From Amphiscolops sp. MND2022 (Eukaryota): a stretch of 64,000 nt of DNA. This document shows positions 26,759 through 64,000 of the stretch, piece after piece (position 1 is the stretch's first letter; each line of letters begins with the position of its first letter). Where the stretch lies: NCBI GenBank assembly GCA_964187785.1, contig OZ076417.1, forward strand, positions 22,816,001 to 22,880,000. Reading direction: 5' to 3'. Made by a program: the position numbers and the translations under genes. The notes below the pieces were generated by a model. It saw nothing but the letters and a program-made list of their open reading frames with translations. It had not been told where the DNA came from and searched no databases.

Positions 26759-26812
26759 CTATTGGTGTGGACGTGATGGTGACTGGTACTGTCGAAGACG
26801 GTGCTGTCTTTT

Positions 26813-31335: not shown

Positions 31336-31389
31336 ATGGAGGGTCTTCCAACCCCCCTCCCCCCCACGTGATCTGCTCATCCTCTTACT

Positions 31390-33706: not shown

Positions 33707-35242
33707 TTTTTTTCAGGTTCTAGTCGTTCGAATCAACTCGTTTGCGTTGGCACACCTTTTGTACAACAAAGTTTTCATTCAACCATTTGTAGTACAACTC
33801 TTTAACACCTTCTCATTTATCATACATTCCTTTTTCCTAGACAGTGCTAACAATATTACAAGCAAAATATTTTACAAATTACGAAGGAACCACACATTAA
33901 AAGTACAAAGCTATATCATAATATAGATTTTGTTACAACCTATAATAACAGAACAATAATCATAGAACATTACATAACCCTTTCTATAAATGCCTTCAGC
34001 TGATGATCTAGTACACTTCTCTGGTTTTCCTTTGGATTTATCGCAGGTCTTGCTCTTTTCTTTGACAAATTTTTGGTTCCTTTTATACCCCAATTCTAAC
34101 ACAGTTTTCTACACAAACCCCAACACAGTTTTCTATCTATTTCACATTTCTAAAACTCTATGTTACTCAAAATAATACTCTCCTTTTTGGTCTTTTCGGA
34201 ATATACATTTTGTTCTTTGATACCATATGTAACTAATGAAATTTTACTCCTTTTTTATGCTCTTTTTCTATTTTCCTCCAAATCCTCTTTGTAGAACAAT
34301 TCTTCCCATGCCGTACAATTTTCAATACAGAATATCAAATTATCCACTACCTTCATCCTTTATTCAAACATAATAATGCTTTAAACAAACATATTTTTAT
34401 GCAAAACTAAAATCACACCTCCGATACAAAATGCTTCCAACTCCATTTCAACTGGCTTCACCTCAACATAGAAACGTACGTACGTACGTTCAATAACACA
34501 AGATATCAAACGACTTTTAGATATCCTTATCTTTCAAAACACAAAGGCACTTCCATTTGAAACAGAAGCACATTCCATTCATACACTTCCATTGTTGAGA
34601 GAACATTTGGACCCATAATTTTATTACATACTCTATGAACCTCTCGATAATAATACAGCGCAAAACCTATTTCAAAAAATTTTTAACCCAGTTTCCGACA
34701 TCAACTCTGGAACATATTATCGAACAGTTTATGCACAAAGTATTCCAATACCAATTCAAACTGTTTTTGTCACATAGTCAGACAAACAAATCGAATACAA
34801 TTAAAATCTAGACCACATCTTTTAAACAAACCATCTCACCTAGAGAGTTTTAAAGATAAACATGACTATTTCGATGTCAAGACGTCGAAACAAAAAGTAA
34901 AAGACAAGGAAACCCTCACTACTGGTTACAATAAGTGACACAATTCCAATACAATTTCTTCCAAATTATAAAAAGGCAGTGAAGATAGTATACCTTAAAT
35001 CAATATCTTCTCTCAATTTCTACTCAAGAATTTTTAGTTCAACTATCAATTACTCTGAAGAGAAGAAGATCAAGCTGCTTATATCAACTTTCCGCAAAAT
35101 TTCATAAGTACAGAACTTTGGCCGTTTATCATATAAGAAGAATGTAAACACTTTCTTCACAAAGATCCTACAACAGTGCAAACACCTTTTTTTGACATTA
35201 TCTCTTTTGATACTTTCTTCATTATAGAACACTCAGAAACAT

Positions 35243-37440: not shown

Positions 37441-37599
37441 CTAACACACTCAATACATAACAGTCACAAATTTCGAACAATCCTATCAATTTTGAAGTAC
37501 ACATGTATCAACCTACACAAATGCCTAAAGCTCTAATAGCAACCAGTTGGTTCTAGTCATTCTATTCCCACACTGCAGAAAAACAAAGTAAAAATAACA

Positions 37600-40500: not shown

Positions 40501-41033
40501 ACACAGATATGGCACAACTCTCTACTCTTATGGGTATTCGTCACTCTCCTAGAACTCCTCACTCCCCTTGGGCAAATGGACTCGTTGAAGTTCAAAACAA
40601 AAATATTGGTACACATCTTCGTATTTTCCTTCAAAAAACCCCTAAAGATTGGGATCGCCAAGTTCATATGTACGCTTACGCCCCTAATTCACAACATCTT
40701 TTTATAAACGTTTCTCCTCGTGAAACTGTGTTTCACACATGTCCTCGAATTCCACTTACCTTTGACTTGAACCTCAATCGAGACTCAAAAAGAACATGTA
40801 TTTCAAAAAGATGTTCTGGTTTGCCTGAACATTCTCATTATGACAATACCGATTTGAACCCATTCTTTTATCGTACACGTTCGAAACACTCGCCCTCAAT
40901 GGTTTCTTGCAGTAGAAACTGCTATTTTACAAAATTGTTTTACGGTAAACTGTTCAAAAAATTAACTCTCAAGCTTATATTACAAAAACACACCATAAAA
41001 ATAAACCTATTCATCTTGGAACTTTCGTGGTAG
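37600..41033 (+). pseudogene. pol: pol of copy A: protease, internally deleted RT/RNase H, integrase
   Basis: FLLDSGASTSVL (about 37625); TPFRIRL..YINDILLLS; jump from the RT end to ADMLSR; IN core LVTDRGSDY...WANGLVEVQNK. Confidence 0.88.
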
Positions 41034-42794
41034 AACCCAATTTTTCACAAGTTCAATTTTCAGACAAACTCAAACCAAAGATGGTTCCACCTTTCATACG
41101 CATAGAAACCATTTGATACCTTATTTTTCAAAAGAACCACCTCTGTATCCTCATCTTCAAAATTTCATGCGTTTTTCAGACTCCATCAAATATGACACTC
41201 CAAAACCAATTAAATATGCAAATAGTGACTGATCCCCTTTTAACTCTGATGACACAGTATAAGATGAAACCTCTTCAGAAAAAAAACATCTTTGTTTATC
41301 AACCACCAAATCCCACTTTTGAAAATACTTCATTCACTAAAGATAACTCATTCTATGAACCAATTAGAAAATCTCATCAAAATATTTTTCCTGACAGAGC
41401 ACGCCATCCATCTCAAAATGACCTTTTAACCCCTCACACTTCGCATAATCGACAAACAAAAACTCATCGAAAGTTGTGAACAATGAAGATACACAGTCTT
41501 ATCAAAAACTACCATCCTTGATACTTCTTCTGAAACATCTCCTTCTGCTCCAAACTTACCATCTTCTAGTTCTGAATGTCAATTAACTATCATATCCCAA
41601 CCTCGCATTGTGGAAATGTTGCCTCCGTCCAAACGACCAAAGTCATACATTCTACAGACATCTTCTAGAACTCTTTTTCCTCCTACAACTTCATACACTG
41701 GAAGACCAAAAATATCTGAAAAACCTACAACTCCTAGGTCTCAACCACAAGCCGTAACAGTACAAACTCCTTTATTTCATGTACCTAATCCTGAAACTGT
41801 AACAAAATTTGTTGATTGTAAACAACCTACTGCTACTAAAACAGCACGACTACAACCTCAAAAAGATATTCTACACATACTTGACACTGAATACCCAACT
41901 ATTTTACACTTTCCCTCTTCTGAAACAGGATCCTCTACGAAATCACAAATCTATCCTACTTTAAACTAAATTAGACAGCAATTTACTCTATATAGTCTTT
42001 TAGAAACCACTTCACGCGACTACTTACCATAACAAAAATTTCAAGTTCCATCTTAGTTCCTCCACATCGGTACAACCTTGAACAACTTGCGTCACGTAGA
42101 CCTAGTTCTGATACTTCCACTCTAAACTTTTCTTCATTAAAGTAACTCGGCACTTCGTCTTTTACATCAACACGCCCAACCCCTTTCATCTGATTCAACC
42201 TCAACCCACTCCTCAGATTTTGTTCCTAATTTTACATCAGGTGTTGATACTGATTCCTTACTCTCTTCAGACGTTCAAACAGCGTACTTTTCTGGTAATT
42301 TCTTTCTGAAGTACTTATTCTTACTCCTGTAGCGCCACACGTACGAATTCGTAGTAATTATGTAGAAATTTTGTAGAAATTAAACAGAACAATCTAGACC
42401 TCCAACTCGGTTTACCGACTACCCAATACGTGTTGATGGTACAACTGTATACGAACCTCAAACTGATCCTCGTTTCACTATGCTCACAGAACGATTCATT
42501 AACGATACCGACACTCTCTCAAACAAAGAGAAGAAACAGAACTAAAAAGACTTCAAAATCCAAATTCGAACTTGAATTTGAAGTCAAAGTAAAATTTTTA
42601 GGTTTGAATCCACATCCCATACTTCACGTTCCTAAACCTGAAGAAAAAACACCTTCTGCCCCTTTCATGGTCACATACATTGAAATTCACGATGATCCTG
42701 ACGGCCCTGATATAACTTATGGTAATTATATTTTGTAACCCATACTCTGGACTTACATATACAATCTCCTTTTAGTACAAAGTTGTTCCCTTCT

Positions 42795-45133
42795 TTGACA
42801 AATATAACCTTTTCTTTCTTACTCCTATATATTATATTACACACGCTATTCCTATTGAACTAACTGATACTGATAGTTATCTCCCGCCTACGACCCAAAT
42901 ATTACGAACCTTAAGCTTTCTCATTATACCTGTGAAAAACAACATAACTTTTGTCAATTTGATCTTTTAAATGTTCTCTAGGTTCAATTAAAATAGTTTT
43001 GTTGAAAGAACTGTATAGAATCAGAACACAACAACACTTTACTTGATCCTCTAGAATGTAAAAACTTGTATAGATATCTTAATGGTCCAACAACAAAATT
43101 TTGAACAACTTTGATTACAATAGACCTTTACTCTTCTTGAAGATCATTATTTCTCAGGAACAATTGGATCAAATTCAAACTCCTTTTACTGTTTACTGGT
43201 ACTTTCACAATTAAGCCTGCTGATAAAAATTGACTTTATGATCCATTACGAAATCCTCTTCACGACTGTCCAGCCCATCACCAACTTGAAGTTACCTTAG
43301 TCAGTTGGACATTTTCAGTTTCCGAAGTAGAAGTTACAAATGATGACGCTGAATGTGTAATGATAGTTGATGGTCACACACTACCATGTTACTTCGGCGA
43401 TAGTTTTTGTAAACCACCACGAAAACTCCTTCTACCTTAGTTTGGTTTAGCGATGAATTTTGTCTCATTTTTACATTAAAAGATTTGTTGGACGAATGAC
43501 TAAAATAGAAGATAGATACTGGATTGAAACTGACTCTTTTGTACACACTTCAGTTCCTAAAAAATCGGACACCACTACTGGTATTAAAGGCACACCCTTT
43601 CCTTGTGTACATGCTCCACATACACGAAATTCACCTAACCGTAGTTTTTCACGCTACGAAGTTTTTCCACATTCTTAAACATTTTATAGTAACCCAGAAC
43701 CTTTTTATACAACACAAAATTCGGACCTTTTTGTTACATATATTGATGGTTTCAATATGCATACAGGACAGCTAAACACTCAATCTGTAATTAATGAAGT
43801 TATCTCAGAGAAACTAGTTTTCGACACCAACAAAAATAAATACGTTTTTCCTGCACTCAATGTTCCAAATATTTTTGCTATCATTGACTATGATGCACAT
43901 GTCAACACAAAAGTTGATTACGCTATTAATCATGTCTTCCACTCCATGACAAAACTAGAATTAAATACCCTTCAGAGTGAATTAGAACGAAATCAACTCT
44001 TTACTAAACTTGCAATGTCAGTAAAAACCCCTCAGCTTGCTGGATTCTTTTCAACAGGAATTAGAGGCAACTTCGTTTACATAGAAGGTTCCACTGCATG
44101 GCCCATGATTGTCCAATTTTCCTTTCAACAATATACAAAGCTGATGGTTGTTTTGATTGCATTCCCATACAGTTCAAAGATACTCTTATGTACGTTGATC
44201 CTATCACCAGACAAACCTACGATAATGCTACTCCTATAACATGTGATAATAATCCACGAAACAGTTTTGAACTAGATCCAGATGCGGATTATCAAGACTA
44301 TTACATTCTTAGACCCGAACCGATAAAACGGAAACCACAATTTATGTTCACGCCATCTCAAATTAAAACTACAATACGACCCAATGCATTTACAGCTCAA
44401 GATGCTGTTATATATTCTAATGCAGATCTTGACCATGTTTGGAACAGAATCTTATTTCCAAAACATGGTGACACTCTTCAACTTTGAGGAAAAGCTCTTA
44501 GTTACTCTTTAATTTCTTCAAATACACCAGATTATGCCTATTCTCCTCATGAAAATCCTTCTAGGACATTACGTATTGGACTACAGGATAAACTCTTTAA
44601 CTTAACCCCACTTTTTGCACCCACAAGGTTCTCTGATGCTTTTATTTCATTGTTTGGATACCCATGTTGTATCTGCACACAAGGGGAAATTTTTTGACAT
44701 TTCATTTATTACAAACAATCTTACCACTTCTTATCAAACTTTACAGAACACGTTCGATAAAGTATAACTTGAAAAATATATCACTTTTCTTAGTTCGATA
44801 GCACATGGTTTTTTCAATATTCTTACAGCTGAAATCGTCAACGACCTAAAAGATGCTCATGTACAAAGACCATTACCGTCCATTAGAAGTTCACACCAAC
44901 ATTCCTTGTCAACTATAACTGAAAACCAAGTAGTTGAATCTTCTTACAATTCAGACGATCCAACAAATCCTTCGACTAAACGTTCTGGAATTATTTCACC
45001 ACCTTTCTTTACAAAGCGTGCAAAACGAGTTCCAAAGATAGCAAAATTTAAAGTCTTTCCGAAACGGAAAAGATCCTTCAATCAACAAAGTAAAAAAAGA
45101 CAACTTCATCAACAATACTTTACCATTACATAA
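42795..45133 (+). pseudogene. env: env-like glycoprotein of copy A (class III, chuvirus-G-like pattern)
   Basis: Signal-like TNITFSFLLLYIIL; SHYTCEKQHNF; ELERNQLF.KLAMSVKTPQLAGF...EGSTAW.YDCP...CFDCIP...MYVDPITRQTY...ITCDNNP; hydrophobic TM segment near 44640-44730; basic tail. Confidence 0.8.
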
Positions 45134-45208
45134 TTCTACATTCGCTCATTTTTTTTACTGTCAATCCAAAGTCAAATGATTATCCTTTAAGTACCACTTC
45201 TGCCAATA

Positions 45209-46700
45209 ATGAGAATAAAAGTCCAGTCAAATTGTATTCAAAAACAAACTACCCTTTTACTCAGTCAGTTTTTTAAACCAGGTCATTCTGACTTTTCACT
45301 TCTCTGCCGCCTACTTGGAACAACTTCCTCTTTCAACAATTTCTGCACTCAACATTTTCTACACTCTACAAAATTCTCTTCACAAATAAAATTTCCTACA
45401 ATACCGTCTTCAAACATTGAGCTCCTTCCTCCAATAGAAATCACCCCAGTGATAGAAATTACTGTTCACCGTCCAACTAATCCGACAACAAAAGTTAGAG
45501 TGTTAGCACATCCCCAAAGACTGCTGATAAAGCAACTCGTTAGTTTACACTTTCTCATATAATTTTCACTATAACACAAGCCCAATTAGATCCCCAAAAC
45601 CAACTTGGACAAAATACTACAGATCTCACAACTCAGCCTTTATTTAATGATTATCCAGTCTTCTTCTTGGAAGCCCTGGAACAAGATCAATCTACAATTA
45701 ATCATGAACAATTTGAACAACATAATAACTCTCCGAACAATCAAAAATCTCCAGAAATCATTTCAAATGACACATCAGGCAAAACTCCACCAACACCAAA
45801 AAAGAAATATCCGGCTTTTCTATCTTCACCCATGTTACCACCTCTTCTATCTTCAAAACCTTCACCCTCTACGAATAGAGATGACCATTTGATAGCAATC
45901 CTTTCTCAAGATCGCTCCACGTTTAAGTCACAGTTCACTTCTTTGTACATGCATCCTACTGATTACATTTTCAAACTGTATGTTAAATATCAAGCTTTTT
46001 TTACATTCATCGCCTTTAAAATAATGTCTCCATACCAATACTGGCTTGACAATGTTGTCAAAAGATTTTCTCTCCAGTTTAACTTTCTTCGTTCATCTAT
46101 CTACGATTTAAAAACTGACGAAAATGATCCTTCATTTCTCTCTATTGCACAAAAAGCCACCTATCAAGAACGTATACTAATTTTCTACAGTACAAAATAC
46201 CATAGAACCAAATTTTTGACAATTATAAATACATTTATCCTTCCACAATGACAAACCTACATACAATTGATCACTCTAAACTTACGGGATTATTACGTAA
46301 CTTTGTTTCCATTAAACAATATTTTTGCCTTCTTCCTCATAATGATACATGACCACTTATTGTACCTCAAGATTATCCCATCCATTTCGATGAGTTCTTG
46401 GTGCCTTGCAACAATCCTACACAAATTGTCGAACCACTAACTGTTTTTAAACATATTGTTTTTTCACCTCCTGGCCATAAAGACACCTCATATTAGACAG
46501 CACTATATAAGCAATCGTACTCCTATAATGAACTGCTCTTCATCTCTGCAAAAGTCATTTCATTCATGGTCAAACAAAAAGAGAACACAAAGCTACCCAT
46601 ATAGAACAACATCGACCTCCTAGAACCTCCCAAGCTACTTCTAACAAAATTACTGTCATGTTAAGACTTCGCACTCTTTGCGACATAACTGAAAAAAATG
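45209..46700 (+). pseudogene. Fourth ORF of copy A, unknown function (homologous to 51000-52535)
   Basis: ORF 45667-46251 with SLYMHPTDYIF, then downstream IKQYFCL..HNDT*PLIVPQDYPIHFDEFLV. Confidence 0.6.
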
Positions 46701-49480
46701 AACCATACAAATAAACTTCTTCTGATACACCTCTCACAACTCTTACTCGAAACATAGCCGGGTATGAACGAAGTTGAAAACTCTCACAATCACTTAATCT
46801 GGATTCTCGAAGATATCCCAATCTTCACAAGCAATTCAAGCCGCTCTGGAATCTTCGAACAGCCTTTTGTCTTCTATTTAACTAATCTTAATACTCCACA
46901 GGTAATACAAATATTTGTTTTTGGAGGGCTCCTGATTTTCTGGTATTCTTTCTTGATTTTTGTACCCATGATACAGGTAACATTCTTGAACTTTTTTCCG
47001 GTATACTACATCTAACGTACACCTAACATTTCTGTTACAATTCAATTATTTAGAAACCATTTTTCACCAAAATCTATCTAACTTTTGTTACACTCTGCCT
47101 TATCGTACATCAAACATGTCATAACTTCTTTTGAACATCAAACTTCTAACACTTGAATTTTCATTATAAACTATATGATACAAATCAAAAAGCACCATCA
47201 AAGATCCACGTGTTCAAACTTCTTTTGTTCTAGAAACGTCTCTTCCTCCACCTCATTGTTTGTTGCCCCTTGGCTCACACCGTTAACTACCACATTCTTC
47301 TACCAGGATCTCTCTAGTTCGGCTTCTTATTCTTCGTCTGCTTCTTCCACAGTGCCAACTGTCTTTTACCAAGACATACCAATGGCTTGTTATTCCGTTC
47401 TTGAATGGCTTCTCCAGAAACTAAAACAATGGCACTTGTTAATTTTCACAATGCAAACACTCTTAAAGCTGCCATATTCCACACAATGTCCTTAAAATTA
47501 TCTTTTGAAATAAACAATAATGTAATCACGCTGGCCATTTACAGGTCCTTTCTCAAAGTCTCATACAACGTTTGCAAAATCAAACAAAAAAATCTGCTTT
47601 GAATAATATCACCGTCTACATGTTTATGGTAAGAATGTAGCCATCTGTGAAGCGACATACTGTTCTTGTCATCTATCCTCCTTTACTAGTAAGGATCAAT
47701 TTTTTCAAGCCGCCCTAGAAGACTCACGTCAAGGATCTAATGCTAGTATGTAAGGTTTTGGCTAGCATCAGAAACTTCAGAAATACGTCCCTGAAGTACT
47801 TCAAGCCTTCCCGCCATCAAAACATCCGTTTTACTGACCTGATGACGACTTCTCTTCATCACTACTTCACTAGTCTTCTAAAGTACTTTTTTTTGTCAAG
47901 AAAATTTGTTGGACTTTAGATATCTTATTTCGGAAGGACAATACTTTCAGGAAGACTCTAACAGAGGTGCAGTATTAGGTTTGAAGGGAAGACAAATTGA
48001 TGGTGAAGAGTAAATTATCGTTGTGAAGAGATATAAATCAGTTTAGTGCTTTACAGTATTGGCAATGGTATTGGATACAAATTAGGTAACGCTTGATTAC
48101 ATCAAAATTCAGAGTACAAATTTCTAGTCTAGACATCGAGCAAGGAGTGGGAGGATGAATGATCGAATTTAGATTACAGGTTTATCATCCGACCTGGTTT
48201 TGAAACAATATATATCTTCAACAAATTGGGTTATCAGAGGTGGGTCGGTCAGGTATGTGAATGTATATTTGAGGTTGGCTCTAATCGGTTGAGGTGGTTT
48301 TAAATTGTTTAGGAGAGTTTGGTTTATGGTGTATAGGACTGAGAGAGGACGTGAGGTTATGAATTATATTTTACTGGATTTGGATATGTTTAAAATTTTC
48401 ATCAAGTTGTAGTACATGAAGTTGTCTTATTCTTTCCTTACGTGAGATTCGGGCGAATATGCAATTTTTATTTTGAGATCATTAAAAAGGATCGGAATTA
48501 GGTTTTAATTTTCATATTGAGTTGAAGTGAGGTTTAATAAGGTATGATGATTGGGTTAATTATAGTTTAACATAAGATTTTGAAATGTTGCCTATGCATT
48601 TTTTGAAGTTTTATTCATTTTATGAGCTGTGTATGTTCCGTGGGGGTTTTGAAAGTTTGAAAGTGCGAGATAGTGATTGACAAGTGAAGGAGTGGCGAAG
48701 AAAAAGCGAAAAAATTCTTAGGTTTCATGTCAACATCTTTTGCGTCTTTTTGTTAAAAACAAAAATTAGGTAATTTGAGAAGCCTTGGCGGCAAGAAGGC
48801 GGCCTGAACAAAGTCAAAAGGTTCAAAAACAAGTCATTTATTAGTCAATGTGTCTTCATATTTTCATCATGTGAAGCGGGTAAAAGAGTAAAAAGAAGAA
48901 CTTTTTCATATGGAAGTGACCATTAAATTTTTCATTTGATTGAAAATCAAACATACAGTGAAAACACTTTCAATATGTGAACTAGGAGAAGTAAAAAGAA
49001 AGTTAGAGTGCCAGTAAAACCGAAGTTACTGACATGTAAAGTTACGTTTTTTGGAGAAACGGGTAGAAATTGGAGTTTCGTGTAAAAAAATGTTTTAAAA
49101 AGGAGATGAATTTCTGAACAATTGTTTAAAACACCACATTTATAGTCAGAGGGATTGTAGTGAACATGCTAAGATAATAAGTTAAGATAAATAGTGGCTC
49201 GAAATTAGAGGTGAACAAAGTTAAAATTTATTAGGTCAAAAAACCAACTTTTTACCAAGTTTTCTAAAGAAAAAAGTTTAATAAAAGACTATTATGCAAA
49301 AACACTGTGGGAACAAACAAAATGAAGAAAGAATGATAGAGGGAGGCACTGATGAAAAAGTTTAAAAGAAAAAATGTTCTTCACAGTGATGAAATTGAGT
49401 ATAATTTTCGAAAAAGTACAGTATATTTTTGGAATGGAGTTATGTCAACTTCTTGAAGAGAGGTTAGCATCGGAGAAAGA

Positions 49481-50010
49481 TCAAAAAGGGAATTGTGGAA
49501 TGGGGGGTGTAAGAGGTTCTATTCTAATGGGAATTAGCGCTGGGGATAAAGGGGGTAAATGAAATGGGGAGGGATTGCAAAAACTATGTGGCAGGTGGTA
49601 ACGACGTTGGGGAAAACAATGAAAACGATTAGAAAAATTATGAGGGGATATTTGGACGCTTAAGGCAGGGAATTGGGCGACTTTGTACGTTGTAGATTTA
49701 AATTTGGCCAATTTGGGAGCGTTTGAAAATGGTTGACTAAAATATTTACATTTTGAGTAACTTTATCTAAATTAGCATCTCGTTCAGTTAACAATTCACC
49801 TAAATAAAGTTCGTACAATTTCAGTGCGTCGTAATACCGAGTTAAGGTTTGCTTGTAGACGGCAGTGTGGACTATTCTGTTTGTTGGAGTTCCAGCTTCA
49901 CCAAGCAGTTGAGGACGTTTTGGGTGACGGGGCTTTCGCCTTTGCAAGTCCTGGGTTAACTGTCGAACAGCGGAGGGTTTCTACAAATTGGGGGAAGAGG
50001 CGATAGCATC
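49481..50010 (-). other. Additional sense-strand ORF remnant in the 3' region of copy B
   Basis: QRRKPRHPKRP...YKQTLTRYYDALKLYELYLGELLTERDANLDKV; more GC-rich than its flanks. Confidence 0.3.
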
Positions 50011-50999
50011 TTGAGGCAGAAGTGGAAGAGTCCCAGCAGAAGTGAAAGAGTGAGAAGAGGCGGTGAACAAAGAAGGAATGGGCGGCAAGAAGGGCTTGGT
50101 AGAAGGTGTCGTCAATTGTAGTTGATTGAGTGGAAGATGTGGATGAAGGTGGAGGAGAAAGATGAGAGATTTTTTGGCAACTGAAACAAATGTGTGATAA
50201 TTATTTGAAGAGATGTTTTTATATATGTATGTGTCGAGTTTGAAATGTGTTCGTGTTTGTGTTCGAAGTGTTTTGATTAATTTTATTGACACGACGAGAG
50301 GATGCTGAAAATGAGAAGATAAGAGGAAAGTGATTTTAAAAGAGTAAAATGTAAACGATAGAGTGATTTTGTAAAGTAGGAATTTGATGGTAACATTGAA
50401 ATTCATATGTTTTGATTTTTTTATGGACTGGCAACGAGATTTGGACAATGAAGTAATCTTGGGAAGATTATGCGAAATCTATACAACCCGAATAGAAATA
50501 ATTTTGTCTGAAAAGTAAGAACTGAGAAAACAAGTGTATCCGAAAAGATTTTCAATTGAAATGTAACATGAGTATTTGAAATTTGGAGGACAATTTTTCT
50601 TGAGAAATAAACAATTACATTTTGATAAAAAAAATTACTGATATACTAACTTTTGTCACCTGTGAAAAACGAGTAAGTGGAGGTTTTTGTGAAAAGTGAT
50701 GATATTAAAATGCAGAACAATATGACAAAAGAAGTGCGATAAAAAATGTCCATTATGAAAAGTGAACATGGTAATTTTGTACGATGTACAATTTGAACTT
50801 GTCATTTAGACATAGGAAGAATGATAAATTTGCATTTTGAAAGAAGCAAAACGTGAATGAAAGGGGAAAAGTGGAGAGAAAAAAATCTGTCTAAATCAAT
50901 CAAAAAAGAGAAAAAATAAAACCAAAAAAATTTGAAACGAGAGAAAAAAATTTATGAGAAAATATCGAAAGTGTTTTGTAATTATACCTAAAATTGGAG

Positions 51000-52535
51000 G
51001 AGTAGGAAGTGAAGGGTTGAGAATTGGAGAAGAGAGATAGGGTGAAAGACGATTTTCAGAAGAAACAGTGAATGGCGGAGTTTAAGGAGAACAAGTGTTT
51101 TGAGAAAGTCATTGACATGTATGGCAGAGAGCGTGAGAGATTGAATATCATTACTACGGAGTTGGAGGAGTTTTTGAAGATTGCAACAGCTATCTAAAAT
51201 ATGATTGAGAATTACAAAAGGATCGGTATTAGGAGAAGGTTCAGTATGTTGACGGAGAAGGTTCAGAAATTCAGTGACAAAATTGTCAGTTGGGCATGAA
51301 ATTGAGTTGACACATACATTTGGGTTAACAGCTTGAAGAACATAGGATGAAGGAAGTTTTGATACAAAGGTGGAAGGAGGAACAATGGAAAAACCTTTGT
51401 TAGGAGTGATATCTTTTGGAAGTTTTATTGAATTTATCCGTTACTTTATTAGTGTCTGGAAAGCATTTGTATTGTTTTTTAAGAATAAAGGAATGAAGTT
51501 TAACAAAGATAAAGTTCAATTGTGCAATTGAGTAGTGTTTATGAACGAGTGAAGTGTAGAGTGAGCGAGAGTGATCATCGAGAGAACTTCAATGATTTTA
51601 CCTATTCTTGGGAAGAAATTTGGTTCTTTAGTAGGGATGTGATGCTCGAGAAGAAAATCATCATTAAGATTGAGTGCTTCGTGTGGAACCAAAAGTGGAC
51701 GAGTGGGGTCACGGTATGTAGCAAGCATGTAGTATTGTTCAATTGGGTCATAATTACGGAATGTACCAATAGTATAGAGGTGATTAAGGAGTAGTGAGAA
51801 TGAAAAGAAAATGGTGAAGTGATTTTAGAAACTTGAATTTTGAGGGTGTTTTTAAGAAGTGTTTGATAGGTTTGGTGATAAAGTTTTTTGACGGAAGAGC
51901 AGTGGAAGTATCATTGGCCTTAGTAGTAAGATCATGTTGAGTGGGTTTTTCGAAAACTGAATTGGAACTGAAAGAAGCGAATGCATTTTTTTGCCAGGAT
52001 AAGAATTGTTCTAAGTTTTTGGAAGCATATGCAACATATTGGTCGAAGTATTGATCTTGCGGAAAACGAAATTTATAGGTAGTAGGGGTCATGTAAAGAG
52101 AAGGAAGATTAGCTTTGAGATTAGGGTGCGTGCGAAGAAATTTGTTAGTCATAGTGTTTGTTTAAGAAGGATTTTTTACAGGATGAAGTACAGGAGGAAG
52201 AATACCCGAGTCGATGAAGACAGGAACTTCAAGTATATTATATTTTTGGTGGGAACAGTATAGGTGGCATTATCAATAGTTATATGGAGGTTACTAGGTG
52301 GAGGAGTAGGTAAATGGCGAGTGTTAAGAGTAGAGGAGTTAGGTTGAAGATTTACAAATGAAGCATTAGAAGAGGGTGGTTTAATTTCATTAGTGTGTTC
52401 AGGAGTACAGATGACTTCAAGATTGATCGGCTCAAAGTTATGAGGAAGTTCAAGAGTACCAGATTTAAGAGACAGAGGGGGAGAAAATGAAGCAGTGCTA
52501 GAGAGGAGTTCTTCATCACAAACAGGTGAGGTCAT
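51000..52535 (-). pseudogene. Fourth ORF of copy B, unknown function
   Basis: MTSPVCDEELLS...; SLYMTPTTYKF; IEQYYMLATYRDPTRPLLVPHEALNLNDDFLL, matching ORF4 of copy A. The lower boundary is approximate. Confidence 0.6.
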
Positions 52536-53079
52536 TTTAGGATATATACTCTGTTAAAAATATATCAGAAACATAAAATGTACCAAAAAGTTTTGATGAG
52601 AAGATTCAGATAGTGGAGACGTACAATCTAGAAAGAAGATTTTCGGAGATATAAATGACGGTTGATTAGAGAATAAAGATATAGCAAGACAAGTGATATG
52701 TAGAAAATTTCTAGAAAGATCATTGAAAAAATGCCTTTTGGAAAGTTATGTTAGAGTGAAATCAAAAGTAGAGTTTCGAAAATAGCAACTTAACGATGAG
52801 AAGAAAATATGAAAAGTGATGAAAGTGAGGAAGAGAAAATGGTCTAAAGTGATTCAGGTGGAAAGCGACATGATGAATATATTTTAGCGTGGCTTTCAGG
52901 TGGATTGAATATACCATTGACAGACGGTAATGGGATGTCATTAACTTTCATAGGTGGTGGAGTAGGAGTATAGTTTTTTGGTTGATTGCCATACGTTGTG
53001 TATAGGGAAACTATTAGAAGAGCTGTCAAAGTTGGTATCTTCAGGAGATATGGCATTATGTAAATGAGAATGAGAAAAC

Positions 53080-55599
53080 AATTATTGTGAGTGTCGAGGT
53101 GAAAAATTATTAGGTGGATTAGTATATAAATTGTAATTACGAGGAGAGGGTGAAGTATTATCAGTTACTTGAAGAGTGGAAACAAGAAGATATGGTAGAG
53201 AAATTTTAAGTGAGGAGAATTTCCTGATGGATGATTTTTTAATTGGTGATCTTTTCATGATATTTTTGTTTTCAAGATTTAAGACTTTAGATTTGATTTT
53301 GGGTTTAAAAAAATGATTTTAAAAAAAATTCCGTTTAGATTTATGGTGTGACGGGGACGGAGTATCAGAATCATCGAGTCGGAATTGGAATCAGAGGTTT
53401 TTATCATACCAGTCATCGTTGTTTTGGTTACAGATCCGAAAAAGCCATAACCAAAAACAGAAACAAGAGAGAATTGTTTTTAAAGAAATTTGTTAACGGT
53501 AAAGGAGCGATAAACACTGAGGAGTGATAAAAGCAAACTGAAGAAAGAGAGCAGTGGAAAAACAAATTCCCTATTGAGATAAAATGGAGCAGGGGATCCA
53601 AAGAGTTTGATAAAAGCATCAGTGAACCATTCAGGTGTTTAAAAAGGGTTAAGTTCAAGATATAACCATGGAAGAAAACTCAAAAAGATTTATATGGATT
53701 ATTTGGAAGACGTTCAGGGGATTGTTTACTAATGAATTCATACCTAATAGCTTTACCAAGAAAATGTAAGGTATTATCAGAATGTTTAGTGAAAAGAACA
53801 TGATTCCAAAAAAGTTTGAGTTCTTTCTGGGAATAAATACCTGCAACTTGGGCAATAAAGGTGTTAGGGCCAATAGTGGCCTAAATTTGGGTAGGTTGAA
53901 AGAGTTGAGGAGGATCTTTTTCAATAGGTTATGGGGTTAGAACACAACTAAAAGTATTAATCAGTGTCAGTGTCGAGAGCATAACGTTATGTGGGTTGTT
54001 TTGAAATGGTATTTGGTTAGCGTATTCAAAAGTTTGACGAGTAATAGGGTCAACATACATGACAGGGTCAAGATATTCAACAGGGATTTTGTCATAGCAT
54101 TGTTTAGTCAAGTATAGAAGAGAGGGGAGGTGAGGACAATCATAGAGCCAAGCAGTTGAGCCTTCAACATAAAAAAATTACTACGGTTTTGAGTTAGGAG
54201 AAAACCAGCAGTTGTCGGTTTTTAACAGACATTGCTAGTAAGGTTAAAAGTTGAGTTCTTTCTACTTCACAAAACGTGTGAAAGGTGTTGAGTTCAGCAG
54301 CTGACAGTGCTTTAAAAACAAGGTTATTGGAGTAATCAATTTTAGTGTTTATATGCGCTTCATAATCTATAGTAGCAAAACTGTTGGAGGAGTTTAAAGC
54401 AGAGAAAAAGAGTTTATGTTGATTATGAACGAGTTTATCAGAAACGAGTTGAGTGGAGAATTGTTCATCTTCAGGTAATTGAAGGATTACGTTTACCAGT
54501 ATGCGTATTAAATCCTTGTTTACATGTAATAAAGAGGCAGGGTATTGAGTTTATAAAGGTGTGTGGTTGTTGCAAAACGTTGTATTTGGAGAAGATTTCA
54601 AAACGAGAGAGTTGGGTTTGAGATTTGAAATAACGATAAAGTGTTTCGGAAGGAATATTAGAATGATTGTTATTAAAGAAGTGTTCAGTTCCAAGCCAAT
54701 AGCGGTTTTTGAGTGTAGACATTCGTCCAATAAAGGAGTGAATTGCAAAATGAGGCATAGTTCTTCAGGGAACCAAACAATGGTGAATGGAGAGAAAAGT
54801 GTGGGCTTACAAAAACCATCATCATGGAGACAAGGTAAGGTCTGTCCATGATAAATTATTTTATTATCTTTATCATCATAGGTGATTTCAATTTCTCGAA
54901 CAACTAAGAGCCAACTATCTTTTCCGATTATATACTCATAACGGTCTCAACAAACGTCTTTTTCTTTAGGGGTTGCGTGTAAAAAAGTTGAGAGTTTGGT
55001 ATCCAAGGAAAAGCGACATAGTGAAAAGTGTTGAGTTTAGTAATACGAAAAGGAGGTCGTTTTGTTTCAAGGAGGCGTTGTTTTTGAATATCATCGAAGA
55101 AGATGAAGGAGTTACTTTAATCAAAAGTGTTAGGTTGAGGATTATCCGATTACCATTGAGATGGCGAATAGCATGTTTGCATTCGGTTGGGTCTTAAGTA
55201 CGAGGGCTTTTCATGGTATTTTGATAATAATCAGTACCATCATGTCTGCGGTATTTATAATCAGATCAACCACAGACGAATTTTCCGCGTTTGAAATGAG
55301 CTTCACAGGTCCACGCTTTAAGGCGTTTAGCTTTAGCGCGGACAAATACATTTGCAAAGGCACGAGTGCTTTCAAAAGCGGAAGGAACTTGAGCACAAGG
55401 TTGTACTCGATTTAAAATGAATTGACGGAAGGTATGTTGTCTAGAACAATCATATTGAGATACCACGAGACAAGAAATTTGAGGATCATTAGGATCCCTC
55501 AACGATATCAGTTGAAGAGTCAAGAGAAAGGATGAGGTGGGTGAAATATTTGAGGAGGAATAAGAACAAAAGAAAATAGTGTTTAGAGGAAGATATCAT
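53080..55599 (-). pseudogene. env: env copy 2 of element B
   Basis: MISSSKHYFLLFLFLLKYF signal; VSQYDCSRQH...QPCAQ...RAKAKRLKAWTCEA...CG; EVERTQLLTLLAMSV; CYDKIPVEY..MYVDPITRQT; TM segment near 53500-53600. Confidence 0.82.
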
Positions 55600-56089
55600 T
55601 AGAACGATTAAAACTGAGCGGTATATTTTAAGAATGTGAGAGTATTCAAAAATGTGGTAGATCCTTGAAGGAGAAATTCATCAGTCATGGTGTTTGTTTG
55701 AGAAGGGTTTTTAGCATGTTGAAGTACAGGAGGTAGGATACCAGAACTAATGAAAACGGGATTTTCAAGGATATTATACTTTTTCGTAGAAGGAAGAGTA
55801 TAAGCAACATTGTCGATGATGACTTGGAGGTTAGTAGGTGGAGGAGAATGTGAGAGGCGAGTTTTGAGATTAGAAGAAGAGGTTGAGTATTGGTTGAAGA
55901 GGATGATTAAATATCAGATAGAGTTGTTTCAGCAGTAGGAATAATTTCAAGAATAATGAGATCGGAGTTATAAGTAACTTCAAGAGTGCCGGATTCAAAA
56001 AAAATTGGTAATAAAAAGGCGATGCTGGAAAGGAGTTCTTTTTCATGAGTAGAGGAGGTTATTACTTTTAGGTTAGAACTAATTTTGGA

Positions 56090-58251
56090 TGTCAGAAAAA
56101 CTAGGTGACTAGTTTCAACAGGTGATTAGTTTTGGATTTAGTATGAGGAGGTGTATCAGAATCAGAGTTAAGATCGGAGGGCTAAATCATAGCGGTCATC
56201 ATTGTTTTGGTTAAAGTTCCAAACAATCCATAACCAAAAACAGAAAGAAGAGAGATATGTTTTTTAAGAGTTTTCTTAACAGTCAAGAAGCGATAAAAAA
56301 CTAGGGAGTGTGTTGAGAGCAAATTGAAGAAAAAGAGCAGTGAAAAAATAAATTCCACATTGGTTTAAACTATAACATGGATGACCAAAGAGTATAATGA
56401 AGGCATCAGTGAACCATTCAGGTGAAAAGAAAAGATTTGAGTTTAACATATATTCATGAAGATCAATTCTGGGTGATTCATAATGACTATTTTGAGGAAT
56501 CCAGAGGGTTGTTAACTCATAAATTCACAACTAATGGCTTTACCAAGGAGTTGTAAGGTATTATCGGAGTGTTTTGAAATAAAACTCGATTCCAAAAATG
56601 TTTGAGTCCTTTTTGAGAAAAAATATCTGCATCTTAGGCAGTAAAATTGTTTGGGCAAAAGTAGTTTGAATTTGAGTTGGTTCGAATAAAAGAGGAGGGT
56701 CTTTCTTTAAAAAGGTTGTGGAATTAAGACATAGTATTGATCTGTGTCAGGGTCAAGAGCAATAACATTTTGAGGGTTATTTTCACATGGAACCTTCGAC
56801 GTATAGAAAATGACTACGATTTTGGGTGAGGACAAAACCAGCAAGTTGTGGATTTTTAACAGACATTCCGAGGATGATTAAAATTTGAGTTCGTTCGACT
56901 TTACAAACAGTGTGAAGATTATTTACTTCAGCAACAGACATTGTTTCAAAGACATGATTAATAGAGTAGTCTATTTTAGTATTTATGTGAGCTTCATACT
57001 CAAAAGTGGCAAAATCATTAGAGGAGTTTAAAGAAGAAAAGAAGTTTATTTTGAGCATGTACAGGTTTACCGAAAACGAGTTCAGTGGAGAGTTTATTTA
57101 AATGTTAATCTACGAGCAGTTGAAGAGGATTGCGTTTGCCAGTATGCACATTGAATTCTTCGTTATATGTATTAAAGAGGTGAGGTCATTTGTAGTATAT
57201 AATTGTATAAGTAGTCGTATATGTTGTATGAGTAGTGTATAATAAAAGGTGTGAGTTTATTGCAAAAATTTTACTTTCGGGGAAGACTACAAAACGGGAG
57301 AGTCGAGTTTGAGATTTAGAGTCATGGTAGGAAATTTCCGAGGGAATGTGAAATTTTATAATTAATAAAGAAGCGTTCAGTTTCAAGTCAATAACGGTTT
57401 TTGTGTTTAGACATACGTCCAATGAAAGAGTGGATGGAGATAACTAAACAAAGATCTTCGGGGAACCAAACAGTTGTGAATGGAGTTTGAATGGCAAGGC
57501 AGGGTAAAGTATGACCATGATAACTGATTTTTTGTTTTCTTTATGATCATAGGTTAATTCGATTTCTCGAACGATTAAAGACCAGCTATCTTTTTCAATT
57601 ATATACTCATAGCGTTCTCAACAAACAGCCTTTTTTTAAGAGTTGAGTTTAAAACAAGTTGAGAGTTGGCTATCCAAGCAATAGCACCGTAGTGAAAAGT
57701 GTTAATTTTAGTTTTACCGAAAGGAGGTTGTTTAGTTTCAAGCAAGCGTTGTTTTGGAATATCATCAAAATAGGTTAAGGAGTTACTGTAATCAAAAGCA
57801 TTAAGTTGAGGGATGTCAGTGCCATTTAGGTGACCGATAGCATGTTTGCATTTCAGGAGGTCTAAAGTACGAGGGCGCTCCATTGTAATTTTGTGGTAAT
57901 CAGTACGATCATAGCGGCGATATTTGTAATCAAATTGTGCACAAACAATTTAACGTAATCTTCACAACTCCAAGCTTTGAGGCGTTTAATTTTAGCGCGG
58001 ACAAAAACGTTAGCAATAGCACGAGTGCTTCCAAATGCTGAAGGGGCTTGAGCACAATGTTGTAATCGGGTTAAACTGAACCGACGGAGGTTGTGTTGTT
58101 TAGAACAACCATAGTGAGGTACTAAGAGGTCAGAGACATGAGGCTCATTAGGTTCTACTATATCAGTAGAGAGTCAAGTGAGAGAATGAAGAGAAAAAAA
58201 ATTTGAGGAGGAGGAAAGCGAAAAAACTGAGTGTTTGAAAGAGGAAGTCAT
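56090..58251 (-). pseudogene. env: env copy 1 of element B
   Basis: MTSSFKHSVFAFLLLKF signal; HYGCSKQHNLRRFSL; MERPRTLD..CKHAIGHLNGTD; CKVERTQILIILGMSVKNPQLAGF..YVEGS; TM segment near 56300-56400. Confidence 0.82.
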
Positions 58252-59399
58252 GAGAGGAAATTAAAACTGAGCAGTATATTGAGGAAGGTGAGTGTGTTTA
58301 AGAAAGTAATGGATCCGTAACGGAGGATTATCACTTACAATACTATTAAGACTAGTGACAATAAAAGGTTGAGGGATAGATTTAAAGTTGACAGTAGTAT
58401 GAGAAAGGATAGGATGAGGACTTAATTTATGGATTTGAGCTGTGATTTCAAATTTAATTTCAAGGTTTGTAGTGTCCAACCGGTGAAATTCTTTTTGACG
58501 ATGTTCGTCAGAAATATGTGTATTGGAGTTTAGTTTATGAGTGGCGGAGTATAAAAATCGGGGATCTTGACGAACACTAGTGACAAGAGTATTTATGACA
58601 ATTAGAGGATAATCAACACAGTTAGGTGTAGGGGGAGTAGAGTATTGATCAGTGGTGAATTCAATTCTGAGGAGATGAGAGTCGGAAGAAAGAACACTGT
58701 TTCTTTGAGAAGTGGTTCTAGAAAAGATATGACCGGTATGATTAAAAGAAGAAGGTAAAGATCGATGGGAAAAGCAACGTCAACACCAGAGGTAGGAATA
58801 TTGTTATTAGAGGAGAAAGATTCGAAAGAACGAGGTTGAGTGTGGTGTCTTACTTAAGAAGAAACAGTGCTTACAAGTGAAGGAGTGGGAGAAGGAGAAA
58901 AACGAGGGAGTAAAACGACGGAAAATGGCTAATGCACTTAGAGTTGTCAAATGTCAAGCATAATTAGGTGTCTAGACAGGAGACAGTATAGGACACATCT
59001 GGCAGTTAATGCATTTGGGAGATGGATTTAGTTTCGAGGAAGGAAACTAATAATAGGTTTCGAAGTATTGAATTCTTTGGGGGAAGGGAACGTAAGTTGT
59101 ATGGAAATTGGGGAGGTCGAATGTGAGTGGGTAAAGTTGGAGCATCAGAGAAAGGTTTAAATGTACAGTCAGGTGAGTCAGCAATACGGGGAAAGATTTT
59201 TGGAAAGGAGGTGGAATGGTAGATAGGATGGTGGATTTTTTCAAAATCAGAGTCAGTAGAGTTAAAGGAATCATCGAAATTATCATGTGGAACAGTAGAA
59301 GGAGGAAGATTTTGATAAGTAGGGGGAAGGTGAGAATATGGTTTTGATTGAGCAATGGGTTTAACAGAAGTGTGCGATTGAAATTTTTCAAATGGATTA

Positions 59400-62300
59400 T
59401 CATCATCGGGTGGAGGGCAGTTAGAATTAATATCTTGTATGAGTCAGTATCAAGAATATTGGAAGAGAAGGTGTTGAATGATATAGACGGAGGTATGGGA
59501 AAATAATGAATTCTTTAGGGTAGTATTGTATAATAAGATTTCTATGAGTGTAGAATGTAGAACCATCATGGGCAATATGTTCATAAGTAACATCAGAGAG
59601 ATGTTATATAATTTAATATGGACCCAGACGAAGGGGTTTGAGTTTATTCGAGAATATAACAGGTTTAAAATTGGTGTGTATAACAGAAGTGTTCGGAGGG
59701 AGTTGTTTTAAGTGTGTAGTTTCAAAGGCGGAATTTTGTGAGTTTAGTTTATTAGTAATATGGCGATGAACAGTAGAATAGATTTCTATCATTGCGTGTT
59801 CAGCATAGAGTAGCCATGGAGAAACAGGTTTGTTTATAAGTGAACGAAAAATGGATTGAGATCTTGATCACAATATTGTGTGTGAGGAGGAAGTGAATTG
59901 CAATTTGTGCATTACAAGATTTAGAGGAGTCGCGTGTTAAATTAAGGGAAAGTTTCATGGGATATGAGGATGAGTATGAAAAACAATTTGGAATGGGGAA
60001 AGTTTAAGTTTAAGATAGACGATTAGTATTATGAGCATAAGCGTACATTTGAGTTTGGAATGATTAACTATTTGGAGGGTTTCGAAACATTGACGGAAGT
60101 TTTCAGAGAAAAGCTTTACAGTGGGTAAAGGAGGAAGGATCAAAGAATGGTGGTGAGCTTGTAGAAGTGGATTTTATGGGAGTTTGGATAATAGTATTAG
60201 AACCGAGACTTCATTAAGAAGAGCGTAGTCATTATTGGAATTTAAAGTTGAAGAGTTTTCGATGTTAGTTAAAATGTCTTGAGAGAGGTGAGAGAATCAT
60301 CAAAATTGTGTTGTTGAATTTCAGCTAAGAGAGAGTGGATAATATGGAATGATTGAGGTTGTTGTGAAATTTGGTGAAGAATCCTTTGAGTACCATGATC
60401 ATCATCTTCCTACGAGTCAATTTCATTGAAAAGAGCGTTTTCTGGGAGAACGTTTCAACTTAATTTTTTATGTTTTTTTTCTACTTATTCAAAAAGAGTG
60501 AGACCGATTGAAAGGAGACTGAATCTAAGTGAGTGTAAGTAACAGTATTTCCTTTGTCTAAAATTTGGAGTGTGAGTTTATCATCACCATCAAGATTGGG
60601 TGGAAATCATTTGTCTGAGTTGTTAATACAACTTCATGATCAACAAGGCAGGGGATTTGTTTCAATGAATTATTGGGTTTGAGTTGAATAAATTCAATAA
60701 GCGGAGGAAGGGTTTTCTGTTGTAATTGACACATTTCATTTGTGATTTGAGAAAAATCTCGACTGAGCATATCAGCAACAATCAGATTTGTACCGGCTGA
60801 GTGAACAATTTGGAGAATGGAGAGTTTGGTTAGTAACATTTGGACTTTATTATGTCTTGGAGTTAGATTTCTTTTACGAGTGAAGAGAAAAAAGGATTGG
60901 ATTATGATCTGTAAAAACAGTGATTGCAAACTTAGAGCCATTGATAGTAAATTCATATTGTGAAAGAGCAAAGGTTATAGCGCAAAGTTCTCTATCAAAG
61001 GTAGAGAGTTTTTGTTCTTGAGTTCTTAAAATTCCAGAGTTATAATCAATAATTTACATTTTGTTATCGGAGTTGAAATATTATTGAAAAAATATTGCAC
61101 CTAGACCAACTAGGGAGGCGTCAACTGTAATATGAACGGCGTGAGTTGTATTAGGGATTGCAAGTTCAGCATCTTTTGAGGGGTAAGATTTCATTAAAGG
61201 GTTTGTCTAGTTCTGGAGTCACTTCGAAGGAAATATCGTCACTGAGGAGGGTATAAAAACGTTTAAAAGAGATGAGGAGTTTGTTCATTAAATTTAAGTA
61301 AAAGATCATTGAACCAATAAATAGCATTAGTTCAGTTTTAGAGGTGACAGTTTTCAATTTGTGTATACAGTCAACTTTAGATGAAATTGGTTGAATAGTA
61401 TTTTTGCCAGTTTCATGTCCAAGAAATTTGACAGTGAAGAGAATATGAAAAGATTTTTCAGAAGCTATTTTATGATTGTTGGAGCTACAGATCTAGTGTA
61501 ATTGTTCGATCAAATCTAACATATGAGTTTTGGTGTGAGCAAGAAGGAGAATATCGTCAATATAAAAAAGTATAAAGCCTTCATCAATGAGTTTTTGAAA
61601 AAAAAGAATACATTTGTTTGGTAAAAAACTTAGGAGTCATTCAAGACCGTGAAACCCTCGGATAAAAGCATACTATGTCTAGTAGAGTTTATCTTCAGAT
61701 GAGAAACTAGTAAGAGAGATGGTTTCTTCATGTAGAGGAGCATGTGCTTGAGCATACATGAGGTCAATTGCAGACTTGAATTTTTTATTTGCGCGTGCAA
61801 GTTGAGGAGCTAGAGGTTCTATAGGCCAAGATTCAAAGGACTGATCGGTGTTAGAGTTTAAATGTCGAGCGTCAAGAACTACTTTTATCGTATCTCCTTT
61901 GGGGATACTAAAGAGAGGATTTTAAAAAGTTGTACCGTAAATGAATTTATCAAAGGGTTTGGAGCCAATTTGTCTAATAATATTATGGTGTTCTAGTTCA
62001 TCGAGTAGCTTTTTAATTTTTATCACTATAATGAATTGGGACTTTAGTGGGTCGTTGATTTTGGAGTTTAGCGCTTGCTTTTAGGCGAATTCTAAAAGGA
62101 GTGTCCATTTTACCAACATCATTACGATGAGTAGCATAACAATGTTGATATTTCACCAAAATGGAGCAAAGTTTTAAATATTCGTCATCAATGACGTCAG
62201 AGTATTGAAAAATATATTTTTTTGAGAAATTGATGAACATCTGGAAAATATGGTAAAGATGGAAGAGGGTGTTTTGAAAATTGATATGGTCGTAAATTAT

Positions 62301-63200
62301 TATTCTCAACAGTGGTTCTTTTAAGAGAGGAACGGCGAACAGGAGGTTTCGGTTCGAAAGATCATGGAAGTATGGATGAAATATAGTGTGTATCAAAAAC
62401 TTGACATAATTACCTTTATAGTGTGGTTGTTTAATGATAATTGCGGGGACTTCAATATTACTAATATCCTGGTGATAGGGTAGCTGGATGATGAGTAATG
62501 TTTTGAATTGAGACAGAGCAACTATTGGGTTCAGTTTTAAGATTTTGATAAACTTGGGGGAAATTAAAAGTGGAGTTGAAGCCAGTTTTAAAATATGGAT
62601 GTGTGGGTTGATGGAAATATGATTTCGTTGTCAGAATTGTGAAAGGTTAATGGGGGAGTAGGTGGGATTGGGAAAAGGAATGCTTGAGAGGCGTTTGGTT
62701 TAAAGTAGATTTTTTGTTTAACCTTAATTGTATAAATATAGGAGATATAAGGGTAGTCTTTTTCTTTATGGGCTATAAAAGGAAGAGTAGTTACGCGAGA
62801 TTCATGAGGTGTATTAAAAGTGGGGGACGTTTGTTAAATGTCATGTGTTCTTTAATATTTTTCAAAGAAAGGAGTTCCAAGATTGTTATTATTGTTATTT
62901 GCAACCGCAAATGGGATGACAAGGTTACGAGTACTTCCATGGATAGAGGTTTGAAGTCTTAGAAATACATTAAATAAAAAAGGGACCTTCAGTAGCTTTA
63001 TTAGCAACTGTAAAGACTTTAAGCTCATCGTTTTGAGGAATTGTTTTGGAACATTTGAGAAAATGATCAGCTACGATTGTGGAAGTGGGTAGATTTGAAA
63101 CACAAAAAGAGGCACCGATATCTATCAGGAATAAAAGTTCTAATTTTGAAGTTAGAGAGTTGTCTTCGGGTGGTTTGAAAATTTTGCGATTGACAAACCA
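59400..63200 (-). pseudogene. pol: pol of copy B: protease, RT (YIDD), RNase H, integrase with the core apparently deleted
   Basis: LFLIDIGASFC (about 63110-63140); TPFRIRL..RPTKVPIHY; FYIDDILLLA (about 61550); ITVDASLVGLGAI; GTNLIVADMLSR; jump to QMYAYAHN. Confidence 0.88.
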
Positions 63201-63285
63201 GGTAGAAGGAGCGATAGCGTTAGCTTGAATATTTGAACTTTGAGAACATGAGGAGGTGTTTGGATGTTACATATTCATTTCAAGT

Positions 63286-64000
63286 TTACGTTCTGTTGAG
63301 GGAGAATGATGAATATTGGGGCTGGTTGTTGAGTAAGATTGACAGTAGGCTTATATTGAGAATTTGAGTAATTTGAGTTTGAGTTAGAGTGAGATCGACT
63401 TCGTTAGGGATTAGAACGTGGTTTAGAAGGAGAACGGTATGGTGTTTTATAGCGTCTAAACGGGNNNNNNNNNNNNNNNNNNNNNNNNNNNNNNNNNNNN
63501 NNNNNNNNNNNNNNNNNNNNNNNNNNNNNNNNNNNNNNNNNNNNNNNNNNNNNNNNNNNNNNNNNNNNNNNNNNNNNNNNNNNNNNNNNNNNNNNNNNNN
63601 NNNNNNNNNNNNNNNNNNNNNNNNNNNNNNNNNNNNNNNNNNNNNNNNNNNNNNNNNNNNNNNNTAAGATTTATATGGACTACGAGATGGTGTTGAATTG
63701 TGATAGTGGGGAGAAGGATAAAATGAGGGTGAAGAGACGTTTTTGTAATGTGGATCATAACAAGATCGATTAGGATCATAATATGGAGATTGGTTTTGAA
63801 AAGGGTGGTTATGATAATATCTTGGGCAAGAATTTGAACGAGAATGAGAACAAGATTTCAACGAGATTCTCGCGAGAATCCTTCGATAATGGTTACTATT
63901 GCTACGACTACGAAAACGAGGAGTTTGGTTATCATAATTATTGGAAGGTGTTTTAAAATGTTGATACAAATGGAGTAGGTGATTTAGATTGGAGTCTAGA
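63286..64000 (-). pseudogene. gag: Arg/Ser/Tyr-rich C-terminal region of gag of copy B (interrupted by the gap)
   Basis: RFRSRSNSNHYRR...SHSRSNS..RYY, at the same position before the protease as the RS-rich region of copy A. Confidence 0.6.
63465..63664. other. Assembly gap (200 N)
   Basis: Run of N. Confidence 1.

Follow-up and report, generated by a model that had tools for sequence, protein, structure and literature searches.

Several described systems come close to the locus reported here, each of them cited from part of its publication. Env-carrying Ty3/gypsy elements known as 'ancient errantiviruses' combine a gag-pol-env order and gypsy-type reverse transcriptase (RT) and RNase H with an HSV/gB-type env (HSV, herpes simplex virus; PMC13524379). 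Anakin is a BEL/Pao element with a chuvirus glycoprotein (PMC7642597). Complex insertions of elements with long terminal repeats (LTRs) derive from two parents (PMC1950507), microhomology-guided strand transfer duplicates sequence in the type 1 human immunodeficiency virus (HIV-1) (PMC13288777), and the Tor3b/4b elements of Oikopleura use an internal promoter to make capped env RNA (PMC4402516). Here we examined a retroelement on the minus strand of a 64,000-nt stretch of contig OZ076417.1 from Amphiscolops sp. MND2022 (the window, to whose first letter all coordinates refer), which carries two env genes, env1 and env2, in tandem. The element combines two sister lineages of one env subfamily. 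We favour, with about an even chance of being correct, a single, old, dead chimeric insertion of the Ty3/gypsy type, whose two parts were joined by a non-homologous switch of RT.

In sequence, the element looks like the gB-type env-bearing gypsy elements surveyed in PMC13524379, sharing their gag-pol-env order, the gypsy-type RT and RNase H and the presence of a viral fusion glycoprotein in an invertebrate-like genome. It differs in having an extra open reading frame (ORF) after env, here ORF4, possibly another before env, and two env copies, all of these being broken; the phrase 'two env' is absent from the main text of that report. As in Anakin, an env of the Pfam family PF24664 lies inside an LTR retroelement, but the pol studied here scores with gypsy-type profiles and Ty3 structures. 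Identity with Anakin was ruled out, as pol is not BEL/Pao; the passages of that report that were searched make no mention of a duplicated glycoprotein (PMC7642597). With the complex LTR insertions, the element shares descent of one insertion from two parents and the same two candidate mechanisms. Those complexes, however, have a third, internal LTR in common, whereas the present join lies inside coding sequence with no LTR between the copies, and a three-LTR complex insertion was ruled out on this ground (PMC1950507). In HIV-1, too, a non-homologous jump to a downstream site recopies sequence, but the duplications are short motifs, while here ~3.5 kb and donors from two diverged lineages are involved (PMC13288777). 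In Tor3b/4b, env mRNA is made from an internal promoter (PMC4402516), which sets a precedent for RNA whose 5' end lies just upstream of env, as our join does; a promoter of this kind in the present family would be hypothetical. In the literature searched, which was covered mostly at the abstract level, with few subscription papers and excluding supplements, no retroelement was found to be described as having two env genes in tandem.

Self-comparison by blastn gave three collinear blocks, pairing 54158-55673 with 56790-58325 (72%, E=0), 53334-54009 with 56131-56790 (74%, E=8e-110) and 52136-52536 with 55672-56063 (70%, E=8e-40). These are far beyond chance, and the tandem repeat is real. An earlier note on this DNA had described env1 (ATG at 58251) and env2 (ATG at 55599) as collinear and diverged, and the blocks bear this out. 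Both ATGs are present, as is that of ORF4 of copy 2 (52535), and two DNA motifs picked out in the note each occur twice (52186/55722 and 55608/58261). The identity between env1 and env2 was 72-78% overall and 78% across 2115 aligned columns.

According to a breakpoint scan, the right-hand part begins at 55675-55668 (2-lnL interval), 73 nt before the env2 ATG. To the left of the join the sequence follows ORF4, and to the right it follows the stretch before env1. The switch in homology proposed earlier was thus recovered, but not at ~55688 and ~90 bp before env; likewise, the homology to the start of ORF4, previously given as 56050-55690, holds with corrected limits of 56062-55672. The view that a whole unit of pol end, env and ORF4 start is repeated stood only in part. 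On the pol side, the repeat takes in no more than the final ~20 codons of the frame that precedes env, and env1 lacks reference residues 483-531 and the C-terminal tail, whereas env2 (55599-52853) can be aligned with an intact relative over the whole 918 residues of the latter. No foreign, LTR-like or host sequence was found at the join, where the coding sequences of both parents abut within 8 nt. The donor homologues share 6 of 10 bases at this point, a level reached by 12% of random joins. A 101-aa ORF (55608-55913) spans the join, running from the end of the ORF4 stub through the last codons of the upstream frame and ending 9 nt before env2.

The relationship between the two env genes was examined against natural proteins. 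With a 176-residue single-frame piece of env2 as the query, 116 proteins from ENA records were obtained, and Pfam PF24664 (Monjiviricetes fusion glycoprotein) was present in 114. This profile gave 35 bits for env2 and 96 bits for P0004, an intact protein of 918 residues in a cluster of 424, at a cutoff of 27. We take the glycoproteins of chuviruses to be class III, which together with the Pfam family suggests that the env studied here is of the HSV/gB type (class III). P0004 was the best full-length match of both env1 and env2 (~69% identity in each case), with P0019, P0025 and P0013 at 46-50%. Judged by these identities, env1 and env2 belong to one env subfamily; an origin from different subfamilies, a check named in the earlier note, was ruled out. 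When 138 close proteins were compared, dropping those with <25 common columns, the proteins listed within the shared region were about equally near env1 and env2, and tail-only fragments favoured env2 just through env1 being tail-less.

Both env1 and env2 are dead. Up to reference residue 745, env1 contains 6 stops and ~14 frameshifts and env2 contains 12 stops and ~15 frameshifts, rising to 14 stops and 16 frameshifts over the full length of env2 (55599-52853); the counts come from a frameshift-aware aligner, whose calls are approximate. Decay rates on the two sides do not differ (20/665 and 27/723 disabled codons, p=0.46), and private replacements numbered 54 and 60 of 401. Since the intact proteins of this subfamily keep a long tail, the loss of the env1 tail, ~0.75 kb together with the spacer, was probably a deletion, with a short-tailed lineage as the alternative. 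The ~800 nt that seem unique after env2 are mostly env tail.

The differences between the two copies are concentrated at silent sites. In 401 clean codons, env1 and env2 differed at 0.167, 0.165 and 0.312 of positions 1, 2 and 3, respectively (dN/dS 0.30, 95% 0.22-0.39), and the third-position excess was seen in 4 of 4 segments. A nucleotide-only pairing, which removes the protein-guided bias of the codon comparison, gave 0.157, 0.175 and 0.326 (485 codons, p=1e-11). At fourfold-degenerate sites, 48 of 120 differed against 0.163 expected from base composition (p=5e-10), and the silent excess amounts to ~0.38 substitutions per site (0.21-0.62). The same third-position pattern was present in the ORF4 starts (24, 25 and 41 differences at positions 1, 2 and 3 in 100 codons), and the stretch preceding env is also rich in silent differences (Table 1). 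Had a single inserted copy been duplicated in tandem and then decayed neutrally, the three codon positions should have diverged alike; the third positions were ~2 times as diverged.

Concerning ORF4, natural relatives exist but no Pfam family was matched. P0304/P0305 are the relatives with which the copy-1 stub groups, while the copy-2 ORF4 goes with P0303 (quartet sites 9:0:0 and 6:0:0), a grouping also backed by a shared 4-residue indel and by support of 92/96 for one branch in a tree from which P0306 was left out as a partial row. P0305 runs past the join position as an ordinary ORF4, so that the lineage of the stub exists without the join. The stub has no ATG at the homologous start and, by identity to its nearest relative, is not more decayed than the full ORF4 (Table 1). 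In two other records, P0306 and P0308, mid-env reads straight into mid-ORF4, implying a shared internal deletion.

The silent-site excess and the different relatives of the two ORF4 starts indicate that the copies did not come from neutral duplication of one inserted copy. They show instead that two sister lineages of one env subfamily, whose divergence took place while they were functional, were joined. Of the origins offered in the earlier note, the joining of two related genomes is upheld by these results and an old duplication of one inserted copy is contradicted, while a template switch is favoured as the way of joining but not proven.

The upstream part (pol, env1 and ORF4 stub) and the downstream part (73 nt, env2 and ORF4) represent the two parent elements. 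In the explanation that we favour, RT, in the course of minus-strand synthesis, would have traversed ORF4 and env2 of one RNA and gone 73 nt further. Helped by a few shared bases, it would then have switched to a co-packaged sister RNA, landing at about codon 130 of its ORF4. The env would thereby have been copied again, adding ~3.5 kb, and the product would have integrated once and then decayed; the gaps in env1 and in integrase probably arose later. Such an element would never have needed two working envelopes. In its geometry, the join agrees with a jump whose landing site is 3.5 kb downstream on the genome. The partners are also close kin, and taking into account that their subfamily comprises 525 of 6020 member sequences (a hand sum of counts biased to young copies), a random neighbour would seldom be this close.

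Apart from the bias in these counts, several observations weigh against a switch between two sister RNAs. Base sharing at the join does not exceed chance, and non-homologous switches are rare in HIV-1, making up 0.1-1% of events or lying 100- to 1000-fold below homologous ones (PMC13288777). Equal decay is not discriminating, as an unrelated neighbour (42738-45295) is similarly decayed, and large deletions are common at the locus, with three on the copy-1 side. As for the two parents themselves, env1 and env2 have in common a stop at reference residue 213, and in one case their frameshifts lie within 3 codons of each other, for which parallel mutation or a short conversion tract would account. 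Natural env proteins do not sort clearly between the copies, save P0180 (7 against 18 sites, upstream sequence included), which is what parents differing chiefly at silent sites would lead one to expect. An assignment of lineages attempted from the env signal region gave no clear sorting either. The quartets with P0307 were weaker (1:2:0 and 0:5:1), and no branch of the ORF4 tree was at the starred threshold.

With the 5' end of the element beyond 64000, and neither an LTR pair nor a purine run of at least 11 found in 47500-52000, a route without any switch has a real, if smaller than even, chance of being right: two sister insertions may have been fused by a later genomic deletion of several kb, having lain side by side in one orientation or one within the other (or having been linked at first by way of their LTRs). 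The window is crowded with gypsy-type remnants, including two related elements in the same orientation 18.7 kb apart, and the three other large gaps on the copy-1 side and the env-to-ORF4 joins of P0306 and P0308 agree with such a history. Plant complex elements, moreover, come overwhelmingly from recombination between independent insertions, with 2 template-switch complexes found in a scan of 4704 elements (PMC1950507). The deletion required, however, is estimated at ~4 kb or more, and at >10 kb if the insertions were adjacent, compared with ~0.15-0.9 kb for the other gaps. It leaves unexplained both the close kinship of the partners and the position of the join 73 nt before the env start, and neither an LTR remnant nor a remainder of the ORF4 of copy 1, including a second copy of the ORF4 3' part, was found in the window.

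The position of the join raised a further, rather doubtful possibility within the switch of RT. By analogy with Tor3b/4b, the join could correspond to the 5' end of a subgenomic env RNA, from which RT would have run off and been forced onto a co-packaged genomic RNA of the sister lineage. If joins were random over ~8-9 kb upstream, ~1% would be expected within 100 nt of the env start (an estimate). A splice-acceptor or TATA-like reading of the join was dropped after inspection by eye, the sequence being AT-rich and decayed. If the subgenomic-RNA reading were true, the locus would be a fossil of how env genes are acquired or exchanged by gypsy elements, and coincidence of the join with a mapped env RNA start would make it a direct trace of env capture or swap, which is still argued from trees. 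In itself, this one decayed recombinant copy shows an exchange of whole env modules between sister lineages of an abundant env-bearing gypsy family.

We also considered whether the element replicated as such, with both envelopes selected and possibly widening the range of cells entered, and regard this as improbable. Divergence under selection is also what long coexistence would leave, the single open frame of ORF4 stub and upstream-frame codons ending just before env2 could keep stop-start coupling, and an in-frame repeat of env occurs naturally in the protein P0163 (520 of 552 residues identical). On the other hand, a join is in frame by chance one time in three, both env genes are of one subfamily, decay in the stub does not exceed that in the full ORF4, and the lineage of the stub has an ordinary ORF4 elsewhere. 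Four proteins, among 7 candidates, matched the 101-residue frame and none crossed the join; nor did any of 348 fetched proteins align across it in a protein-only test of low sensitivity. Both sides seem to have begun decaying together, without a long active period with two env genes, although a short-lived lineage of this kind may have existed, the join being in frame. The earlier suggestion of a two-envelope element with broadened tropism finds no support, given the single subfamily, the death and similar decay of both genes, the incompleteness of env1 and the absence of a second copy of the join among the proteins searched; the element provides no evidence on tropism. Nothing in the proteins compared suggests a spreading lineage. 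We view this copy as a one-off recombination scar and not as a working two-envelope virus, recombinant and rearranged dead copies being an ordinary class. Recurrence of the join in the genome would instead indicate a lineage that carried two envelopes.

Internal repeats, detected by shared 8-mers, were present in 3 of 265 fetched proteins of at least 150 residues. Two of these, P0163 and P0001, are env proteins of another subfamily with near-identical in-frame repeats at offsets of 771 and 162 residues. Internal env duplications occur in the wider family if these records are correctly assembled; the repeats could be recent duplications or assembly errors.

An assembly or read chimera is very unlikely. 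The scaffold is rich in repeats and has two N gaps in the window (20203-20402 and 63465-63664), but the nearer one is 7.8 kb from the join, the join offers no long overlap usable by an assembler, and a divergence of ~22% with an excess that follows codon position means that the copies are neither haplotypes nor a collapsed repeat. Least credible is the neutral tandem duplication, which the shared stop, 20 of 401 residues shared against P0004 and the internal repeats of P0001 and P0163 would suit, but which is ruled out by the silent-site excess and by the separate ORF4 relatives with their lineage indel, while just 1 of the 14 frameshifts in env1 lies close to one in env2 and the 20 shared residues fit parents closer to each other than to P0004.

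The coordinates of the features are collected in Table 1. In the pol region, the RT remnant matched Pr125Pol entries of the PDB (E 1.5e-5 to 2.7e-5), which score slightly above the Ty3-type RT entries 4ol8 and 7q5b. Pfam matches in pol were RVT_1 (weak), RT_RNaseH and RT_RNaseH_2, and in 58300-63400 there was no BEL/Pao-specific Pfam match, gypsy-type matches being found instead; RT and RNase H are gypsy-type by these profile and structure matches. An env ORF lies downstream of this pol. What remains of integrase is a weak C-terminal SH3-type match, below cutoff. A plus-strand neighbouring element has the order RT then integrase, and no match in the studied element was collinear with 39800-40650 of this neighbour. 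No Pfam family was matched by the frame upstream of env1. The env-bearing gypsy family has a conserved frame of ~200 codons before env and an ORF of ~500 codons after env, neither of which is in Pfam.

Table 1. Features of the two-env element, by position in the window
Feature	Position	Strand	Remarks
RT remnant, copy-1 side	61280..62020	-	Pfam RVT_1 E=3e-5 (below curated cutoff); PDB matches
RNase H remnant	60860..61179	-	Pfam RT_RNaseH E=4e-15; PDB 4ol8 and 7q5b, E=0.0024
Integrase zinc finger and core missing (approximate place, near 60070)	60020..60150	-	no rve match; plus-strand neighbour has one
172-aa open stretch of the frame before env1 (pol end or separate ORF)	58261..58779	-	homologous to 42399-42675 of neighbouring element
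Pre-env1 stretch	58252..58325	-	corresponds to the 73 nt that follow the join; of 17 codons compared with copy 2, 8 differ synonymously, 3 by replacement and 6 are unchanged
env1, broken incomplete fusion-glycoprotein gene, copy 1	56131..58251	-	68.5% to P0004
Internal env1 gap, ~148 nt	56790..56791	-	env2 54010-54157 without counterpart
Short link; env tail and spacer (~0.75 kb) absent, exact ends ambiguous	56063..56130	-	
ORF4 stub, copy 1	55672..56062	-	~130 codons (390 nt), 1 stop, 1 frameshift; 73% to P0304, 55% to ORF4 of copy 2
Non-homologous join of copy 1 and copy 2	55668..55675	-	breakpoint scan
Pre-env2 stretch	55600..55671	-	last codons of upstream frame and 9-nt gap before env ATG; one open frame with ORF4 stub end
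env2, full-length but broken fusion-glycoprotein gene, copy 2	52853..55599	-	PF24664 E=5e-9; 69.8% to P0004 (residues 1-918)
Spacer between env2 and ORF4	52536..52852	-	single copy in window
ORF4, copy 2, broken	50988..52535	-	3' end approximate; 68% to P0303 in first 130 residues

The studied element extends on the minus strand from beyond 64000 down to ~47900-48000, where a flip in G/C strand skew marks its lower end. The plus-strand neighbour (33000-47900) adjoins it tail to tail, with no recognisable LTR between the two, and carries gag, integrase and a related env of another subfamily. This env (42738-45295) has P0019 as its best match (67.5% identity, 3 stops and 13 frameshifts) and contains gaps, and the element seems to lack ~0.6 kb between RT and RNase H. 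The two related minus-strand remnants of the gypsy type lie at 3300-9300 and 22000-28100; they are 67% identical and have RT, RNase H and integrase matches but no env match in Pfam. A short gag/protease-like fragment on the plus strand (31300-32580), without a Pfam match, resembles by eye these two minus-strand gypsy elements and ends abruptly at ~32580. Amid the retroelements, an intronless open frame of 681 aa on the minus strand (12865-14910), with 14 calcium-binding EGF stretches, is apparently a host gene or exon, and its repeats indicate an animal host. Two further repeats were noted: a 47-nt unit in three near-perfect tandem copies (17926-18066) and, upstream of the plus-strand elements, an 88-nt direct repeat (30770-30857 and 31119-31206) whose copies are 81% identical and 349 nt apart.

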